Shown here piece by piece: positions 3,161 through 50,115 of a DNA stretch of 64,000 nt. Position 1 is the stretch's first letter. Each line of letters opens with the position of its first letter. The DNA comes from a phage. The notes under the pieces were generated by a model, which was not told the origin of the DNA, searched no databases, and saw nothing but the letters and a program-made list of their open reading frames with translations. The position numbers and the translations under genes are program-made. The stretch lies in assembly GCA_018509705.1 (NCBI GenBank), contig GCA_018509705.1_3630.1, one strand, 5' to 3'.

Positions 3161-3504
3161 GTTTCCTCCATTATCACGTGATAGGTGGATTTTATCATAG
3201 CAAATACTGATTGTCAAGTTCGCCGCAGGGTGGTATTCCCTGCGACTTGTCCAGCGTCCTGGACCAGCAAGACCCAACAAGTGGGTTACCAGAGCCCATT
3301 ACCGCACTTTGGCTCGACCTTATTACAGGTTGGCTGGGGTCACATCGTCATGTGCTGGCTGCCCCTACCATTTTAAGTGTGGTGCACTATCAAGCCCTCT
3401 AAGGGGAACTCAGCCTTCTCCGAACCCTGTTTCAAAGCATCCGGAGATAAAGCCATCAAATTCATCTTTAAATTGGATATTCATCATGATACACGAAAAC
3501 AACC

Positions 3505-3747
3505 TCATTGTAAAGCACAAATAAATAAAACATACTTAATTTGTTTGTTATCAGGCTCAGGGTAGAAGTAGAAGATCTTGCTATCACCGATCTGAACACC
3601 ACCATCCCAACAGCATAGCCCATAACCCGTATTCATACAAGCTAAGTCGTTGGCAAAATCTATTGCATCATCCAGTGCACGAAATTCACCTTCATCTTCT
3701 AAATAATCCTCATTCATGGAACGAAAAACGAGCTTAACCTTAAACAT
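3505..3747 (-). CDS. hypothetical small acidic protein
   Basis: ORF track; coding-dense minus-strand context. Confidence 0.35.
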   Translation of the reverse strand: MFKVKLVFRSMNEDYLEDEGEFRALDDAIDFANDLACMNTGYGLCCWDGGVQIGDSKIFYFYPEPDNKQIKYVLFICALQ

Positions 3748-6179: not shown

Positions 6180-6590
6180 TCATTTAAGTTTAATGCAGTT
6201 TTTAAGCTGGCGTTCCATACGATCCACAACCCTGTCTGGAACATCATGAATGCTTTTATTACCATGGCGGTTTTCAACCACGATCACGGTATAACTATAC
6301 CCATGACTGATCGCCATGTCAATATATTCTTGCACATATTTTTCTTTTGTAAACGTATTACTTACCACGATACGGTCGTATCCCATACGCATCATATCTT
6401 CTACGTTATCTTTGCACCATTTTGCTGCAAGTGTTACTTTACTTGCATCCCAGTTGTAATTTCCATCATCGTCGTACCAGAACATGTCGTTCTCAAAATG
6501 TGGATACAGACCTTCTAAAGATAGCGCATTTGCCAGTGTTGATTTGCCAGACCCTGGTAGACCACGCACGATATATAGCATTTTAGACAT
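6180..6590 (-). CDS. P-loop kinase, polynucleotide-kinase-like
   Basis: Walker A GLPGSGKST near N-terminus; GGAGG RBS before ATG at 6590; directly upstream of the phosphatase. Confidence 0.55.
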   Translation of the reverse strand: MSKMLYIVRGLPGSGKSTLANALSLEGLYPHFENDMFWYDDDGNYNWDASKVTLAAKWCKDNVEDMMRMGYDRIVVSNTFTKEKYVQEYIDMAISHGYSYTVIVVENRHGNKSIHDVPDRVVDRMERQLKNCIKLK

Positions 6591-6711
6591 AGTAATCCTC
6601 CGTTTTAATTTCAACGATAGTATACCCAACTGTTTTGTTAATTTCAAGTGTTGACACTAGGTTATTTGTGTGGCAGGATAGACTGACAAAATGACAAATG
6701 AGGAATGTATA

Positions 6712-7626
6712 ATGAAGTATTTTAATGCAGACGACCTAGTTGACAAAGGTCTTGTAACCAGCAGATATTACCCAGATCTTGGGTTAAAGATCTATAAATA
6801 TGCCAGAAAAGTATTCTACAACAACTTATGGCATTTGTCTCCTCGATTACTGGAGTGCCGAGGCATTGTTGTCGGTAATGAAGGAAATGTTGTGGCATGG
6901 CCCTTCACAAAAGTGTTTAACTTGGGAGAAAACTCCACCAACCTGCCTGACAATAAGCTTGTGACGGCGGTAGAGAAAAAGAACGGATTCCTTGGTGTGG
7001 TGTCATCTCATAAAGGTGAACTATTGTTCTCAACAACCGGGTCTCTTGATTCTCCATATTGTAACCTTGCAAAGGAAACCATCCAGGAGCAATGCAGTAA
7101 TTTAGATCTTATCAAGAAGGTTATGGGCAATGAAAACATGACATTCATGTTTGAAATTTGTCACCCTTCAGATCCGCATATTGTTCAGGAAGATCATGGT
7201 GCATATTTGATAGGTTGCAGATATAATGATTCTGGAATAATGCTACCAGAAGCAGCTTTAGATGGGATTGCCAAATACCTTGGTGCAAAACGTCCTCACA
7301 CTGTGCGTGAAATTCCGTTCAGTTATGCAAAAGAATTGGCTGCAGAAACAAGAGGTGAAGGGTATATGATTCGTAAGCCTTACTACCCTTATGATCTGCA
7401 GCTGAAGATTAAGTCTCCATACTATCTGGCACGGAAGGCCGTAATGAGGGGTAAAGCTTGGAAGATTTGGGATGATGATATCTTTAAACGTGTTGACGAA
7501 GAGTTTTACGGCATGGTAAACTTCATTCGTAACAACTACACAGAGGATGTATGGAACTGCCTCCTGGAGCAGGAACGCCGTGAGATACTTGATTACTATT
7601 TCCACAACGAGAACTATATGCAATGA
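6712..7626 (+). CDS. RNA ligase (covalent nucleotidyltransferase superfamily)
   Basis: Motif I KKNGF (KxNG), motif IV EGYMIRK, motif V LKIK; AGGAA RBS before ATG 6712 (alternative start 6691). Confidence 0.6.
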   Translation: MKYFNADDLVDKGLVTSRYYPDLGLKIYKYARKVFYNNLWHLSPRLLECRGIVVGNEGNVVAWPFTKVFNLGENSTNLPDNKLVTAVEKKNGFLGVVSSHKGELLFSTTGSLDSPYCNLAKETIQEQCSNLDLIKKVMGNENMTFMFEICHPSDPHIVQEDHGAYLIGCRYNDSGIMLPEAALDGIAKYLGAKRPHTVREIPFSYAKELAAETRGEGYMIRKPYYPYDLQLKIKSPYYLARKAVMRGKAWKIWDDDIFKRVDEEFYGMVNFIRNNYTEDVWNCLLEQERREILDYYFHNENYMQ

Positions 7627-7981: not shown

Positions 7982-8743
7982 ATGCGACGACTGATTGTTA
8001 TCTCCGGTGCTGGTTTGAGTGCTGAATCTGGTATTCCCACTTTCCGATCTGGTAGCACTGCAATGTGGGAGAATTTCAGCATCGATGAGGTGTGCAACAT
8101 CCACACCTTTGCCAAGAACTACTATAAGGTGCATGACTTTTACAATGCACGTCGTGTAGCTTTAGGCAGTGTTGAGCCTAACCTTGCACATCTTCGGATC
8201 GCTGAGTGGTATTCCCGCTGGTCTGGTCGTGTGATCAACCTTACCACCAATGTAGATGATTTGCTGGAGCGTGCTGGTGTAAAACATGAAGATATTTTAC
8301 ATGTCCACGGGTATTTGCCAGAAATAGTCTATGAGGACGATGAAGGAAGTGACGTCATTAAGGACATTGGATACTCTGAGGTAGACGCAGGAAAGTATAC
8401 CTGGGTTAAGCCTAATGTGGTGTTCTTCGGAGAAGTAGCTCCGAAGTATACAGACATGTATGACCTGTTGACTTCTCTTACGAGCAATGATATGGTTATC
8501 CTTGTAGGGTGCTCCAACACAGTTATCAATTTTAACTGGGAGCTATTCCCTGCCTGCAATAAGGGAACCAAACTACTGATCGTTAATAAATACGACTCAC
8601 AGCATCTAGAGGAGAATGGCATTTCACGTAGTGATATTTACCAGTATGAGGATCGCGGCATCCCAGTTTGGTTTAACGGTGCGGTTGATGCCTTCTCTGA
8701 TAAAACATTCATTGAGACTGTAGAAAACTTTATGGAACTTTAA
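7982..8743 (+). CDS. Sir2-family (sirtuin-like) NAD-dependent protein
   Basis: ISGAGLSAESGIPTFR matches sirtuin GAGISxxSGIPxFR; TTNVDDLLERAG and HG motifs follow. Confidence 0.7.
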   Translation: MRRLIVISGAGLSAESGIPTFRSGSTAMWENFSIDEVCNIHTFAKNYYKVHDFYNARRVALGSVEPNLAHLRIAEWYSRWSGRVINLTTNVDDLLERAGVKHEDILHVHGYLPEIVYEDDEGSDVIKDIGYSEVDAGKYTWVKPNVVFFGEVAPKYTDMYDLLTSLTSNDMVILVGCSNTVINFNWELFPACNKGTKLLIVNKYDSQHLEENGISRSDIYQYEDRGIPVWFNGAVDAFSDKTFIETVENFMEL

Positions 8744-45274: not shown

Positions 45275-45564
45275 AGGCGGCTAAATACTCCTATATGCCA
45301 TCAACCTCTGCAGAGGTAGACTTTAGTTTCGATGTGTTTCCACTGTTTGAGGTGGTTCTGGCATACCCAACAATACTATCTACTCCTGAATCACTTGTGC
45401 CTGTTAAGTTGCAGAACGCTATGCATTCTATGCACTACAACAATAAATGTAGGCACAGATGGTGTCAGGACGAGGAGAGAGATTTGGATAGTTTGAGAGA
45501 TTTTGACAGTCACCTTTTGACACCTTTCAGCTACTCCAACCTTGATAAGCCTTCATGGGTATAG
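45275..45564 (+). CDS. hypothetical protein
   Basis: ORF track (start at ATG 45275). Confidence 0.4.
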
Positions 45565-45588
45565 CAAAATATCAAATTTAAGACACCT

Positions 45589-45616
45589 AGGACGCTCTGT
45601 GGCGTCCTTTTCTTTA
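45589..45616 (+). terminator. Rho-independent terminator
   Basis: AGGACGC-TCTGTG-GCGTCCT then TTTCTTT. Confidence 0.65.
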
Positions 45617-45777
45617 TATGGTGCACGATTGCATACCTTGGACAAATAATCTCGTTACAGAGCGTTTAAGGACGGTCTACAAACAAATCTCTCTTTCGAG
45701 CGTAGCGAGAACGCACGTCCGTTTTGACCCAAATCACCATACGCTCGGATTTTAACCAAACCCTCGCGGCGTTTCTG

Positions 45778-45806
45778 TTGACACATTACCGCTCCAGTGA
45801 TAGTAT
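45778..45806 (+). promoter_or_regulatory. sigma70-like promoter
   Basis: TTGACA-17nt-TAGTAT. Confidence 0.45.
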
Positions 45807-45838
45807 CCACACATAGTTTGTAGAATATGGAGTACACA

Positions 45839-45928
45839 ATGAGAACATTGTCCGAAGTTTTAGTGGTGATCCTGATGATTATTACGTCCATAGCGGCTGT
45901 TGCCGGAATACTCACGGGTGGAACATGA
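45839..45928 (+). CDS. micro-ORF, 29-aa hydrophobic peptide
   Basis: TGGAG RBS; MRTLSEVLVVILMIITSIAAVAGILTGGT; stop overlaps next ATG. Confidence 0.3.
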   Translation: MRTLSEVLVVILMIITSIAAVAGILTGGT

Positions 45929-46137
45929 TCAACACACATGCATCTGAAGAGACATCCGAAGGAGTGACCATATGTCCCTTGGCTGATCCAGTGAAAGAGG
46001 AAAACTTCGATTCTGAAGATTCTCCATCTTCGCTCCAGGTAGATCCTGAGGCTGATGATCTAACGTGGGAAGACATCGTAGACATCTGGTTCTCTATTAT
46101 GCCTGAGCACGAAGAGTTCAGGGGTGGTAGACTATGA
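45925..46137 (+). CDS. hypothetical small acidic protein
   Basis: ORF track. Confidence 0.35.
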   Translation: MINTHASEETSEGVTICPLADPVKEENFDSEDSPSSLQVDPEADDLTWEDIVDIWFSIMPEHEEFRGGRL

Positions 46138-46258
46138 AGCACCGAGCCCACACAGGTTCCTCATGCTAAAGCATGGCCTGAAGAGGCAAACGTGCATAAT
46201 TCCAGTGCATTGGAACGTATAAAACCCAGTTCACACTCTCATTTCCAGAGGAGATTTC

Positions 46259-46474
46259 ATGAAGATAGAAATATTTGGTGGAGCTGACAACACTCGTGGC
46301 CTGATTTACCTTGAGTTCGATGAATCATACCTGCCAGAGGTGTTAAATATGGACTCTGTTGCTGATGCTTTGGGAGTAAGTCCTAAAGATCTCTACTCTG
46401 GTGCTGAGATTGATGGTTGGGAGGAGACCATGAACATTGATTTCAGTGAAGTAGGTGATGAACCACTGGACTGA
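46259..46474 (+). CDS. small acidic protein, family-A-like; last plus-strand gene before the non-coding hub
   Basis: MKIEIFGG..., GGAGA RBS. Confidence 0.4.
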   Translation: MKIEIFGGADNTRGLIYLEFDESYLPEVLNMDSVADALGVSPKDLYSGAEIDGWEETMNIDFSEVGDEPLD

Positions 46475-47235
46475 CACACAATTAGCTACCCGGCTAAAGT
46501 GCTGGGAGCACCTATAACACATCTTTCAACTAAATTTCCCACCACCACAATCACTTACCTCCCACACATGACTGTTTGCTTGTTTAGTGAGCAGTCATGC
46601 CTTGACATTCTTGCCTATCCTGATAAAATTAAGTTCTTCTCTTTTCTTTTACCGAGTAATTCGGGTTTTCTGTTCTCTTCGGTTTGAAGGGGGTATGGAG
46701 ATACACCTGAGTGAACAGGGTGAACAACCGAACCATTGGCTATGGCATTAGCATGGCGAAGCGGACGGGTGACGAAAGAGGGGCCGGAGGACACCAGTCA
46801 CTGCCATATGATATATGGGTGATAACCTGAAGAATCTGAATAAGTGTTTAAGTACCAGTCAGAGGAAAAGGTGAATGGTAGCTGAAGGGGAGGGGGGTTT
46901 CTTGTATCTTTAATTTGTATATTATGTATACACTTGTAAACCAATTTCATCTGAATCTGTTTACCACACAAAGTGGATAGAGACAAATATTACCTATTAA
47001 ACTTGAATTATTTATAGAAAATACCACAACACCACTTAAGTCTTTGATTTTACACACAAATCCTGCAGATATTCAACCTCCATATTTAACATACTTGTAA
47101 CATATTCCATACTCTACCTGCCTGATCAATTTCCCCAACTACATCCCCCATATTTTCCCTGTCTGTACTACCCCTGCCCCGCCGGGAGTCCCGTCATATC
47201 TGGCTTTCCAGCAAATATCACACCCACAAATATCA

Positions 47236-47290
47236 TTGCCTGAAGAGGGTTTCATCCCATAATACCTGCCTTGCCTGAAGAGGGTTTCAT
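47236..47290. repeat. 20-bp direct repeat x2 (TTGCCTGAAGAGGGTTTCAT), 15-bp spacer
   Basis: Copies at 47236-47255 and 47271-47290. Confidence 0.7.
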
Positions 47291-47957
47291 ACGCCACGTA
47301 AATTTTTTAATTGACCCCTCCCCGCCGCCGGAAAGGTTGGCTTTTCTCGCACAGACCTGAAGAGTCAGCCAGAAATATCTGAATAGGCCCAATTCTACCC
47401 CGATTTTGACCTGACCTACAGGAGCGCTGCCCTGTCAGGAGCCGTAGCGACTGGAGTGCTGCCAGGCGGACGAAATGGGAATACTTCTCATTCTTATAAC
47501 AATTCTCAAATATCGAGGCAGTGAGGCAAATTAATAGGCCAGGCCGTTCACACAGTGGCACAACATTTGCAACCTATCCTGTGGGGATGAATGAGAATAC
47601 CTATCATTGTGAGAACCATTATCATTACGGGCAATTTAACATAATACCCATTATGCGCACCACTGGCGATACATACAGGGATTGATAACATGGGTTACTG
47701 TTTACGCACATAACAATTATATTTCTTACCATTTGTGTGGGATATAGTTAGCAGCCGATAGATTAGATATTAACCTGCAGACTTCTGACCGTCCAGACGT
47801 CTAAACGCCCACACACCAAGGATTATACATACACTCCTGAATGTAAACAGGGCCGCAAAAATGCTACCATACAAGCTTGTAAATTTTTCATGCAGCACTT
47901 GACAAAGAGGAGAAAAACTTGTCTGACATAATGTGACCTAACTGACACAACATGACA

Positions 47958-48048
47958 CTTTTACACACCTATTAGTTTACACACTGGATTGTTTACATTC
48001 CTGATTGTTCACATGCTAACCATTTACATGATTGACTGTTTACACACC
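47958..48048. repeat. Iteron array: six TTTACA/TTCACA-centred repeats with 15-16 bp periodicity
   Basis: Motif recurs at about 47961, 47977, 47993, 48008, 48024, 48040. Confidence 0.6.
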
Positions 48049-48057
48049 GATAATCAG

Positions 48058-48307
48058 CCATGCCATTCGTTTGCATGACAATAATTATACATGACAATAA
48101 TCGCACTGATTATAATTAGCATGACATAATATAAAAGCAGGGCAACTATTAGCAGATCTATAGTTGCCTTGCTTGTCATGTCATGATTAACTAAATACAA
48201 GGCAACTATGATCTGATTAATAGTTTGCAGACAAACTATCACGGGGGTGATGGTTACTGCTTTTATATTATGTCGCGACTCCGTCGCGCCATGCCATTCG
48301 TTTGCAT
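48058..48307. repeat. Composite element: perfect 19-bp direct repeats flanking a 212-bp AT-rich core full of inverted repeats
   Basis: CCATGCCATTCGTTTGCAT at 48058-48076 and 48289-48307; inner palindromes GGCAACTAT-N11-ATAGTTGCC and ACATAATATAAAAGCAG/CTGCTTTTATATTATGT. Confidence 0.6.
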
Positions 48308-48921
48308 AGTTGCCTTATTGTTACAGATAAAATAATTGTATTGTTAATTATTTCTTATCTTTCTATTAGTCATCTAATGATTTCAGTTAATATAGTAACG
48401 TACAGTAAACATTAGACGACTAAAGATTTCTCTGCTTATGGTAACCTAACGTGACAATTCCAGACTGTTTACGAAAAATGTTGACACCTGGGCCGATTTA
48501 TGTTATGCAGTTTACACGAATAATTATTTTATGCAGGTATTGACTATTCCGTTATTCTATGGTTGGAATAAATGCTTAGCAGGCTATAGAATGGCGAGCG
48601 TACGTAAATTCTGAGATCTGGCGGCTATAGTTATACTCGATTTTTCACGTAGAAAACGCTTTTGTAGTTATGTAAGTGTATGACTTATAAAGATTTTTAG
48701 TTGTTGACAAGCTATTGAAGATATGCATCAGGTTAAATTTTGTGCAAATGCTGCATTATGTGCAATTTTGGAAGGAAAAACGTGTAAAAATGGCCCTGCT
48801 ACCACACAATGAAAAATTATGCAATAGTTATTTTATATGTATGTTTGTACAGTGGGGTTAATTGCTGGCTTGTTGATTATTCCATTTGCCAGGCGGGGCC
48901 ATTTGTGGTAGGAAAAGAGGA

Positions 48922-48950
48922 GACAAAAAGAAAGGGGCTTTAAGCCCCTG
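48922..48950 (-). terminator. Rho-independent terminator closing the minus-strand early block
   Basis: AGGGGCTTTAAGCCCCT hairpin followed by T-run on minus strand. Confidence 0.6.
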
Positions 48951-48968
48951 ACCGTGCACCTTGTTGTA

Positions 48969-49233
48969 TTATTTGTTGCTCATCCAGTTTTCCCAAGCTG
49001 CCTGATAATCTGCCTCACTACGGCGGATCTCTTCTTGCTCTTCAAGGCGGATCTCTTCTTCCAGGTACCCCAAGATGTCAGCCTTTTTGGTCTGGCGTAA
49101 CATCCAATCATCTTTTTTACGAGTGAAGATCTTATAAGCTTTCTCGCAAACCTCTTTTTTGCTACCTTTCTGGACTTCAAGAATTCTGTAGGCCATGTAC
49201 TGAACTAATTTAAGCTGATCCAGACGTTTCATG
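48969..49233 (-). CDS. hypothetical protein
   Basis: AAGAGGA RBS before ATG 49233. Confidence 0.45.
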
Positions 49234-49293
49234 ATGTTTTCCTCTTTATGTGGTCCTGGTTTAGTGGGCCTTTTGGCCCGTGTCATTATCTTA

Positions 49294-49566
49294 TTACTTA
49301 TGGCGGCAGAATTCAAGTGTTTTTAATTGATAATCTTCCTCAGCCTGGAGTACGACCGCCTCGATCATTTCGTTGGCATTGTTAAAGCCATAACCTTTAG
49401 CGAACTCATCCGCGCCACCTTCGTGATCATGTTCTGCGTTCATCGCTTCCACAAAATGGAATTCCAAATTGTTGAGGTAGGGGCTTGATGTGCCGTCTTC
49501 TTTTTCGATGAGATCCCAAATAGCATTAAAACGTGATTCGACTTCTTGATTAATCCAGCTTGACAT
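49294..49566 (-). CDS. hypothetical acidic protein
   Basis: ORF track; leader hairpin GGGCAAAAGTGCCC upstream. Confidence 0.45.
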   Translation of the reverse strand: MSSWINQEVESRFNAIWDLIEKEDGTSSPYLNNLEFHFVEAMNAEHDHEGGADEFAKGYGFNNANEMIEAVVLQAEEDYQLKTLEFCRHK

Positions 49567-49777
49567 AGTGTTTTCCTCTCTCCTGGTTATTGTGTGGGCA
49601 CTTTTGCCCCTTCAAGATAAATGTTACCCCACCCCATGGCAGATGTCAACGGTTTTTATAGTTCTTATATGACAGGCAGGCCCGGTGATTGTCTCCACCC
49701 GTCGCCAGGTGCCTGCCGTGAAACAAGTATAACAAAAAACAGGACCATTGCAAGCCCTGTTTTGTAGTTTATAAGGA

Positions 49778-49969
49778 TTATATTTTTTCGCCTATGTAGT
49801 CCGGTCGGTTTTTCTCTGTCATGCGCTTGAGCAATTCTTGCATGTTGCTTATGGCTTGCAGTGTATCCCCTTCCAGACTTGAATCAACATAATCAGGATC
49901 GTCTATAACCTTTCTATGATTATGATAACGCAGTACCGCCAATACCTTTCTAACTTGTTCGATATTCAT
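49778..49969 (-). CDS. hypothetical small protein
   Basis: ORF track. Confidence 0.4.
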   Translation of the reverse strand: MNIEQVRKVLAVLRYHNHRKVIDDPDYVDSSLEGDTLQAISNMQELLKRMTEKNRPDYIGEKI

Positions 49970-49981
49970 TTTTATCGCTCT

Positions 49982-50115
49982 TTAAAACAAGGTGCCAACC
50001 GTTCCCAATAGATCACTGACTACCAGGACAATACTGATCAGCACATACCTAACCATAAGGGGAAAGAGCGCCAGCGATCCAGCCACAATCCCCAAGGTGA
50101 TGATTATCTTTCTCA
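49982..50115 (-). CDS. micro-ORF, 44-aa hydrophobic peptide
   Basis: MRKIIITLGIVAGSLALFPLMV...; start next to upstream stop. Confidence 0.3.

Follow-up and report, generated by a model that had tools for sequence, protein, structure and literature searches.

The stretch analysed here (the window; 64,000 nucleotides of contig GCA_018509705.1_3630.1) contains between positions 46475 and 48968 a gene-free region, below called the hub. Comparison with related phages indicates that the hub is very probably the genome-terminus or concatemer-junction region of a Vequintavirus that packages its DNA with exact ends, in the manner of T7. More specifically, the hub holds one collapsed copy of a 459-bp direct terminal repeat (DTR) at 47465-47923 (plus strand), assigned by homology to sequenced virion ends. 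By sequence similarity the window is from an rV5-like E. coli myovirus of this genus: positions 46400-49000 are matched by 122 phage records at 80-99% identity, all but one of them above 90%, and all are rV5-like members of Vequintavirus. Phages of the rV5-like group are among the most frequently isolated E. coli phages (PMC8594841) and relatives have been called potentially therapeutic (PMC7471380).

Terminal redundancies of 458 bp have been reported for the vequintaviruses EdH4 and HdK5 by Korf et al. (PMC6563267). The records of these two phages and of Gotham start 435 bp upstream of window position 47900, and the Gotham record annotates a repeat_region at 1-459 and 136567-137025. In Gotham, HdK5 and ECP2309 the same exact 459-bp sequence stands at both record ends, as we checked in the sequences themselves. 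These repeats and their unique flanks are collinear with window 47465-47923, and the boundary sequence is identical. Records of EdH4, HdK5, Gotham, ECP2309, bov11CS3 and bov25_3 open at 47465, and those of Pr121LW and EcoIv14a_Aya open at 47923 in reverse orientation, Pr121LW being a single-copy record cut exactly at 47923/47924. Altogether, one or the other DTR boundary is the exact opening point of eight records, traceable to at least five separate sources. Gotham has moreover been described with the 'same specific start sequence ... all virions', and its reads are deposited in SRA under BioProject PRJNA646048. Only one DTR copy is present in the window, which is expected because assembly collapses both ends, and a terminal repeat is therefore invisible to a reader of the raw sequence. 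The first-pass annotation, made from that sequence, had suggested a terminase-binding site with genome termini as one of several functions. That suggestion went in the right direction, for the virion ends of relatives map inside the region, at 47464/47465 and 47923/47924. When the DTR region was used as a blastn query for distant matches, none was found outside Vequintavirus.

The hub is non-coding. Between 46474, where the last plus-strand gene stops, and 48969, where the first minus-strand gene stops, its longest mechanical open reading frame (ORF) has 84 amino acids. We aligned the hub of 14 phages (the window and 13 relatives) and took all 23 hub ORFs of at least 30 amino acids through a coding test that considers intactness in relatives and the distribution of variable sites by codon position. 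None of the 23 has a third-position bias of variable sites and the majority are interrupted in the relatives, hence the conclusion that the hub does not encode protein; in the flanking genes the variable sites fall at codon positions 1/2/3 as 4/2/20 and 6/2/34. Both the lack of credible ORFs and the meeting of two converging transcription blocks, as noted on first reading, are confirmed, the latter by the ORF layout and by the annotation of relatives. The outermost gene blocks read towards the ends and stop short of them, leaving about 1 kb gene-free on each side. A comparison with related phages, proposed at that stage as a check, gave a mixed picture: the hub is unannotated in some records and variously annotated in others, with spurious small ORFs that change from record to record among depositors and have no coding signal. 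The rV5 genome paper of 2013 marks the position as a grey 'non-coding' box (PMC3606486).

Boundaries of the terminal repeat in related phages

Both boundaries of the DTR carry conserved motifs. The left cut, 47464/47465, lies in GTGCTGCCA/GGCGGAC (47456-47471, plus strand), a motif that among the 14 phages differs only in rV5, by a single base. The right-boundary motif CTTGACAAAGAGGAGAAAAACTTGTC/ (47898-47923, plus strand) ends at the cut 47923/47924 and is likewise conserved, Alma and FFH2 having one substitution each, so that the two motifs together have three single-base substitutions among the 14 phages. Hub DNA is most variable immediately outside these boundaries. A variable 32-bp stretch just outside the left one (47416-47447) is missing in six of the 13 other phages, and on the right divergence sets in a few bases past 47923.

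A DTR of 514 bp has been located in Klebsiella phage KPP-1 (genus Mydovirus) at 116,316-116,829, where coverage is twofold and PhageTerm gives a T7-like call (PMC9862379). Gene blocks converge on it from both sides, and it occupies the centre of the gap of about 1.8 kb between them. We used this published position for the comparison and made a global alignment of both DTRs with their flanks. At the mapped left end of KPP-1 the boundary aligns as GGTGCTA/GACGGAC, and at the right boundary TTGTAAATTT..CTTGACAAAGAGGAGAAAAACTTGTC/ in the window stands against TTGTAAATTT..GCTTGACAAGGAGAGAGAATTGTGT/ in KPP-1. A block inside the DTR, ATTACGGGCAATTTAACATAATACCCATTATGCGCACCA (47624-47662), is conserved across genera (E = 3e-4 for KPP-1 and E = 5e-4 for A73), and its match in KPP-1 falls within KPP-1's own DTR. 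Phage A73, an unclassified member of Vequintavirinae that was found through a hub-flanking protein, has a gap of about 2.1 kb with both boundary motifs and the central block, and its gene numbering wraps within this gap. The left motif of A73 is CTGCTGCCAGGCACGGCGAC (also given as CTGCTGCCAGGC), and on the right side a purine run is followed by TTTTGTC/TAGCA. The ends of A73 are unmapped and its DTR position is a prediction from the motifs. Conserved sequences at both cleavage sites are thus found in 14 phages as well as in KPP-1 and A73, and, as judged from the alignments, the DTR layout is a trait of the subfamily. A73 also has a 58-bp direct repeat (6255-6312 and 6358-6415; 98% identical, 103 bp apart) inside its predicted DTR near the right boundary, to which the window has no counterpart.

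Elements flanking the terminal repeat

Two repeat arrays stand beside the right cut, on the left-end side. Four TGAC(A/C) motifs at a spacing of about 10 bp (47924-47957, plus strand) start at the first base past the cut and vary between phages. Six (T)GTTTACA repeats follow (47958-48048, plus strand), an array that begins 37 bp from the cut; its repeats start at 47960, 47976, 47992, 48008, 48023 and 48039, i.e. at spacings of 16, 16, 16, 15 and 16 bp. The six iterons at 15-16-bp spacing listed in the first-pass annotation are therefore real in number, position and spacing, and they are not a chance cluster: TTYACA occurs six times in 96 bp against 0.076 expected (Bonferroni-corrected p ~3e-7), and outside the hub no 96-bp window in the whole 64 kb has more than two. 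The exact 8-mers GTTTACAC and TGTTTACA are not enriched window-wide, and it is only the local cluster of the looser TTYACA that is significant. Tandem Repeats Finder reported nothing, because the repeats are too divergent for it. The array is always present and its length differs between phages by whole 14-16-bp units (two to nine strict matches), rV5 and Murica having about five additional units. Identity in the repeat-array zone drops to about 82%.

A large branched hairpin or cruciform (48123-48274), identified by folding and by its homologues, has at its base an 18-bp perfect inverted pair (48123-48140 and 48257-48274) and a structured interior of 116 nucleotides. Compared with shuffled sequence its fold has z = -11.7 as DNA and z = -10 as RNA. 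The distance from the DTR end to the stem base is 199 bp in the window. KPP-1 has a hairpin at 311 bp (z = -11.7), and A73 one at 218 bp from its predicted DTR (z = -5.9). Homology of the stem bases is recognisable between the window (GACATAATATAAAAGCAG), KPP-1 (GACACAATAACACGGGAG) and A73 (GACACTATAAAACGAG), and at 8 of the 18 stem positions both sides have changed between the three genera with pairing retained. Directly 3' of the large hairpin is a small GC hairpin with the motif TCGCGCCA (48275-48291, plus strand), and the 3' flank G(C/G)TCGCGCCA is common to all three phages. Compensatory changes and homologues in two other genera imply, on this comparative evidence, an ancestral hairpin element that is under structural constraint and is not an insertion.

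The hairpin is enclosed by two copies of a perfect direct repeat, GCCATGCCATTCGTTTGCAT at 48057-48076 and its right copy at 48288-48307 (both plus strand), with nested inverted repeats in between. A palindromic core bounded by direct repeats had been described here from the start, and its location and inverted repeats are correct; the repeat is 20 bp long, not 19. Phage FV3 is missing exactly one 231-bp unit and keeps a single copy of the direct repeat, around 105.8-106.0 kb of its genome, the sole such case among about 120 genomes. The absence of the hairpin from FV3 may mean that the element is dispensable, or the 2012 assembly may have lost the palindrome. Inside the hairpin there are two operator-like palindromes 60 bp apart, GGCAACTAT-N10-ATAGTTGCC (48141-48168) and GGCAACTAT-N10-ATAGTTTGC (48201-48228), with the consensus GGCAACTAT-N10-ATAGTT(G/T)(C/G)C and extra half-sites at 48232-48239 and 48306-48314. 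The equivalent zone of KPP-1 has palindromic sites of its own, ATGATAA-N3-TTATCAT in four copies. Two further observations concern the same element. Six relatives have a 29-bp GC-rich double mini-hairpin (GCCAGGTGACCTTTGGTCACCCCTTCGGGTG) inserted at 48114, just outside the left arm of the large hairpin, and rV5 and LL12 have a 33-bp insert at 48175 in its apical region; the stem is spared by both insertion types. GATC is scarce in the hub, with 4 sites against about 14 expected (352 in 64 kb), and two of the four fall in the spacers of the operator-like palindromes.

On the left, the hub contains a promoter-led unit. A near-consensus sigma-70 promoter (46602-46629, plus strand; TTGACA, 16-nucleotide spacer, TG-n-TAAAAT) faces the terminal repeat and has 11 of 12 hexamer matches together with the TG of an extended -10. 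Both hexamers are unchanged in 14 of 14 phages, the sole change being one spacer base in rV5. The promoter scan gave 12 sites against 9.1 expected, among which only the one at 46602 stands out, and in the right arm it gave no convincing promoter. Downstream of this promoter is a purine-rich unit (46636-46915, plus strand) that ends in GGGGAGGGGGG and a T-rich tail. It is 98-100% identical in the 14-phage alignment and 96.6-98.9% identical in 119 genomes, which is more than the flanking genes (92-98%). Conservation of the left arm stops right after GGGG(G)AGGGGGG and the T-rich tail (46887-46915). The paired G-run at 46887-46897 (plus strand), recovered by a pattern scan, is G4AG6 in the window and G5AG6 in the other 13 phages. 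Two more lie on the minus strand at 47171-47180 (CCCCTGCCCC on plus) and 47315-47323 (CCCCTCCCC on plus), the latter complementary to 46887-46895; of four paired G-runs in 64 kb, three are in the left arm of the hub. The invariant promoter and some 270 near-invariant bases suggest a candidate non-coding transcript or a DNA signal of some kind.

It had been proposed on first reading that the left part of the hub is GC-richer and may encode structured RNA. The difference in composition is marginal (44% GC against the window average of 42.5%; the right arm has 34-37%), and the structured RNA found no support in that form. In the fold predicted for the left arm the pyrimidine 5' end is paired to the purine 3' end, and its stability is no better than that of shuffles (z = -0.68 on the plus strand and -0.33 on the minus strand), and an Rfam scan of 45500-50000 at E <= 1 gave only a chance snoRNA match outside the hub. 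The unit has no host match, blastn for distant matches found none outside Vequintavirus, and it is absent from the hubs of KPP-1 and A73.

Between this unit and the DTR, on the unique side of the right end, a repeat cluster (47213-47290, plus strand) contains AAATATCA twice, at 47213 and 47228, and a 20-bp perfect direct repeat, TTGCCTGAAGAGGGTTTCAT, at 47236-47255 and 47271-47290. This is the 20-bp pair that the earlier reading had already picked out. A weak collinear match to AAATATCA..TTGCC lies left of the KPP-1 DTR (78% over 32 nucleotides, E = 0.17). At the opposite side of the hub, an AT-rich spacer (48308-48930, 34% GC) has weak promoter-like matches only, and an intrinsic terminator (48933-48949, minus strand) closes the minus-strand gene block; the records of Alma, Gotham and HdK5 annotate it as well.

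Mechanism and competing explanations

If T7 and T3 are taken as a guide (PMC4281155, PMC13595956), replication would give head-to-tail concatemers with one repeat per junction. Terminase would cut these at the conserved motifs GTGCTGCCA/GGCGGAC and ..GAGGAGAAAAACTTGTC/TGACA, and the repeat would be duplicated by DNA synthesis to give two copies per packaged genome. By homology to sequenced virion ends, the packaged linear chromosome very probably starts at 47465 and ends at 47923, with the 459 bp present at both ends of the virion DNA. The hairpin, 200 bp inside the left end, could be a structure-dependent cis element for end processing, for duplication or for the priming of replication. The promoter-led unit of the left arm might be transcribed, might prime synthesis through an R-loop or might act as a signal in the DNA itself. 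Least certain are the genus-specific repeats: four TGACA with six GTTTACA, and AAATATCA..TTGCC with the 20-bp pair, would be putative binding arrays of a sequence-specific phage protein. As to the identity of this protein, our best single guess is the recognition subunit of terminase, to which we give somewhat less than even confidence; it is favoured because an array stands 37 bp from a mapped cut, is there in every phage and co-varies by lineage.

It is possible, if on balance unlikely, that the arrays are bound instead by a replication initiator and that the hub is a replication origin, which could coexist with the terminus; the hairpin and the AT-rich DNA at 48308-48930 would then supply unwinding or priming. 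Repeats, palindromes and an AT-rich stretch do occur in an order typical of origins, and each genus carries repeated sites of its own in the corresponding place. However, a position 37 bp from a mapped cut is just as much in keeping with a packaging signal. Cumulative GC skew peaks at about 47 kb, but the skew turn coincides with the switch of transcription direction and is hence uninformative; for rV5 the authors state that the GC- and AT-skew turns at the hub simply follow the change of transcription direction (PMC3606486). Two loose matches to the DnaA box (TTTTACACA) at 47048 and 47959 also speak for an origin, yet DnaA and IHF matches are at chance level, with nine each in 64 kb. About as doubtful as the origin is the idea that the left arm yields a non-coding transcript of some 270 nucleotides from the promoter at 46602-46629, which would act as a small RNA, prime synthesis as G-rich RNA in an R-loop with a C-rich template, or work through transcription into the junction that helps end processing, as at T7 phiOR. 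The promoter with its 11 of 12 matches, TG and 14 of 14 invariant hexamers argues for it, and so do the identity of 96.6-98.9% over about 270 bp in 119 genomes, above that of the flanking genes, the end at G4-5AG6 with its T-rich tail, the pairing of the pyrimidine 5' with the purine 3' end and the concentration of paired G-runs in this arm. On the other hand, the fold scores (-0.68 and -0.33), the missing Rfam match and the absence of the unit from the hubs of KPP-1 and A73 count against it, and conservation is equally explained by protein-binding DNA. The literature search turned up nothing relevant on Vequintavirus transcriptomics. A combined and clearly speculative version, to which we give a small probability, makes the hub a composite module of end processing and replication that uses the host RNA polymerase. 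Here the 46602 promoter would drive a G-rich untranslated transcript in the direction of the junction, which forms an R-loop at G5AG6 and primes DNA synthesis across the terminal repeat or recruits terminase by stalling, and the hairpin conserved in the subfamily would supply a fold-back or a structure-specific site for duplication of the repeat.

Other explanations deny the terminus, the lack of genes or the ancestry of the hairpin, and all of them appear very improbable to us. Headful packaging, with no fixed ends and a hub unrelated to termini, has in its favour that PhageTerm pointed to it for BpE1AUH, a Vequintavirus genome recovered from the metagenome of a phage cocktail (PMC13211470). 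Against it, a repeat of 458-459 bp or 514 bp has been reported three separate times in the subfamily, and eight records are opened at one or the other of two shared positions. Equally improbable is the reading of the 231-bp unit (48057-48307) as a small mobile element or insertion that duplicated its target site. Its perfect flanking direct repeats and the clean 'empty site' of FV3 with a single repeat copy would fit such an element. However, the arms of the inverted repeat do not abut the direct repeats but are set 46 and 13 bp inward of them, a target duplication of 20 bp would be unusually long, no copy occurs in 5,426 E. coli genomes, and the phage collection gave none at other places. Moreover, stem-base and positional homologues with compensatory changes occur in two other genera, and the single genome of about 120 without the unit fits a repeat-mediated deletion or a cloning artefact. 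The suggestion of the first-pass annotation that this could be a small inserted element has to be given up, as the structure is common to three genera, shows compensatory changes and has no copy in the 5,426 E. coli genomes. A MITE-like element (miniature inverted-repeat transposable element) was rejected as a candidate: the arms do not abut the duplications, and there is one copy per genome, always at this locus. Still less likely is that the hub holds unrecognised small protein genes. Various depositors have annotated ORFs of 35-68 amino acids here, and the short ORFs 46711-46830 and 48302-48415 are unbroken in 13 of 13 relatives; but the annotated ORFs are inconsistent across records and mostly interrupted in relatives, variable sites of the hub are spread evenly over codon positions, which is not so in the flanking genes, and in 46711-46830 four of five substitutions are, in our reading of the alignment, non-synonymous.

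Several points weigh against the genome terminus of the T7 type, which we nevertheless prefer, or against the terminase-bound arrays proposed for it. The ends were transferred by homology from relatives whose DTR region is about 94-96% identical to that of the window, with identical boundaries. Headful (pac) packaging has been inferred for the one cocktail-metagenome Vequintavirus (PMC13211470), a point that we judge weak. The window's repeat motifs, which may be bound by terminase, by a replication initiator or by some other protein, are absent from the hubs of KPP-1 and A73. If the assembly of FV3 is correct, a phage without the hairpin argues against an essential role of that element. Finally, the 64-kb window encodes enzymes of nucleotide metabolism and replication and contains no terminase gene.

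Neighbouring genes, known systems and significance

Five small proteins bordering the hub gave no function and no recognisable domain with Pfam and PHROGs. One of them, of 87 amino acids (48969-49232, minus strand), is labelled 'DNA translocase FtsK' in many records of Danish wastewater phages. It is without a Pfam domain, its PHROG is of unknown function and the label is unsupported; it looks like a propagated over-annotation. Eight of the 13 relatives have 565 bp extra at window position 48957, encoding a minus-strand gene of 139 amino acids (PHROG 12277, function unknown; 3280-3699 in rV5). This insertion is absent from the window, nomo, Alma, Gotham, HdK5 and FV3, and the 'Rel homology domain' annotated for the gene in Murica and Pr121LW is unsupported by Pfam. 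Among the matching GenBank records, 18 or 19 of the series MG0656xx are named 'Campylobacter phage' (host Campylobacter jejuni). Their hub identity is about 83-94%, and several encode the adjacent 87-amino-acid protein at 100% identity. These labels are almost certainly wrong, and the records look like mislabelled or contaminating rV5-like coliphage genomes.

Farther away, the minus strand at 1913-2725 carries seven tRNA-like genes (Pro, Met, Thr, Ser, Tyr, Arg). ARAGORN calls at 2158-2256 a 99-nucleotide tRNA whose anticodon has four bases (atcc); this may be a pseudo-tRNA, contain an intron or resemble a frameshift suppressor. In the plus-strand block there are homologues of a Sir2-family NAD-dependent deacetylase (7982-8743, plus strand) and of an RNA ligase/tail-fibre attachment catalyst (6691-7626, plus strand), and in the same block a DNA ligase, an exonuclease, a thymidylate synthase and aerobic and anaerobic ribonucleotide reductases.

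Among known systems the T7/T3 type resembles what is predicted for the window in its short exact terminal repeat with fixed ends, which has to be duplicated at concatemer cleavage. Dunn and Studier are said to have noted in 1983 that arrays of short repeats, SRL and SRR, whose role was unknown, stand on either side of the T7 repeat, and the T7 promoter phiOR fires into the concatemer junction. To our knowledge, rV5-like phages have no RNA polymerase of their own. The window differs from T7 in coming from a 137-kb myovirus, in its 459-bp repeat against 160 bp in T7 and in having about 1 kb gene-free on each side; the junction-facing promoter is of the host sigma-70 type and there is no sequence similarity to T7 signals. 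A hairpin intermediate has been reported in the processing of T7 concatemers (PMC4281155).

The R-sites of lambda cosB and pacL/pacR of SPP1 have, like the window, several short repeats within about 130 bp of a terminase cut, an arrangement consistent with a multimeric recognition subunit. The ends predicted for the window are long direct repeats, in contrast to cohesive or headful ends. That small terminase acts in DNA recognition has been stated (PMC13595956). Iteron origins such as lambda ori and plasmid oriV share with the window direct repeats at sub-helical spacing beside AT-rich DNA. Unlike these, the window's repeats are short (a core of about 7-8 bp), variable in number and 37 bp from a cut, and no initiator gene is adjacent. 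Also among the closest systems are the terminal repeats of Vequintavirinae (EdH4, HdK5, Gotham and KPP-1), which are homologous to that of the window with identical or aligned boundaries; the reports on them give repeat length only.

The terminal repeat itself is not new to the genus: two short papers give only its length, and GenBank records carry it as a feature. In the literature searched we found no description of the boundary motifs, the array that varies by whole units, the covarying hairpin or the invariant promoter-led unit. Most deposited rV5-like genomes are opened arbitrarily, and depositors leave the hub empty or annotate spurious small ORFs in it. With the ends placed at 47465 and 47923, there is a correct genome start for annotation and a reason against calling genes here. 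The defined and conserved cis elements can be mutated in tests of end formation and replication initiation, and they are relevant to the engineering and rebooting of these phages. If the composite module is true, it would be the counterpart in large myoviruses, driven by the host polymerase, of the T7 phiOR/junction system, and it would offer a tractable model of how exact terminal repeats arise.

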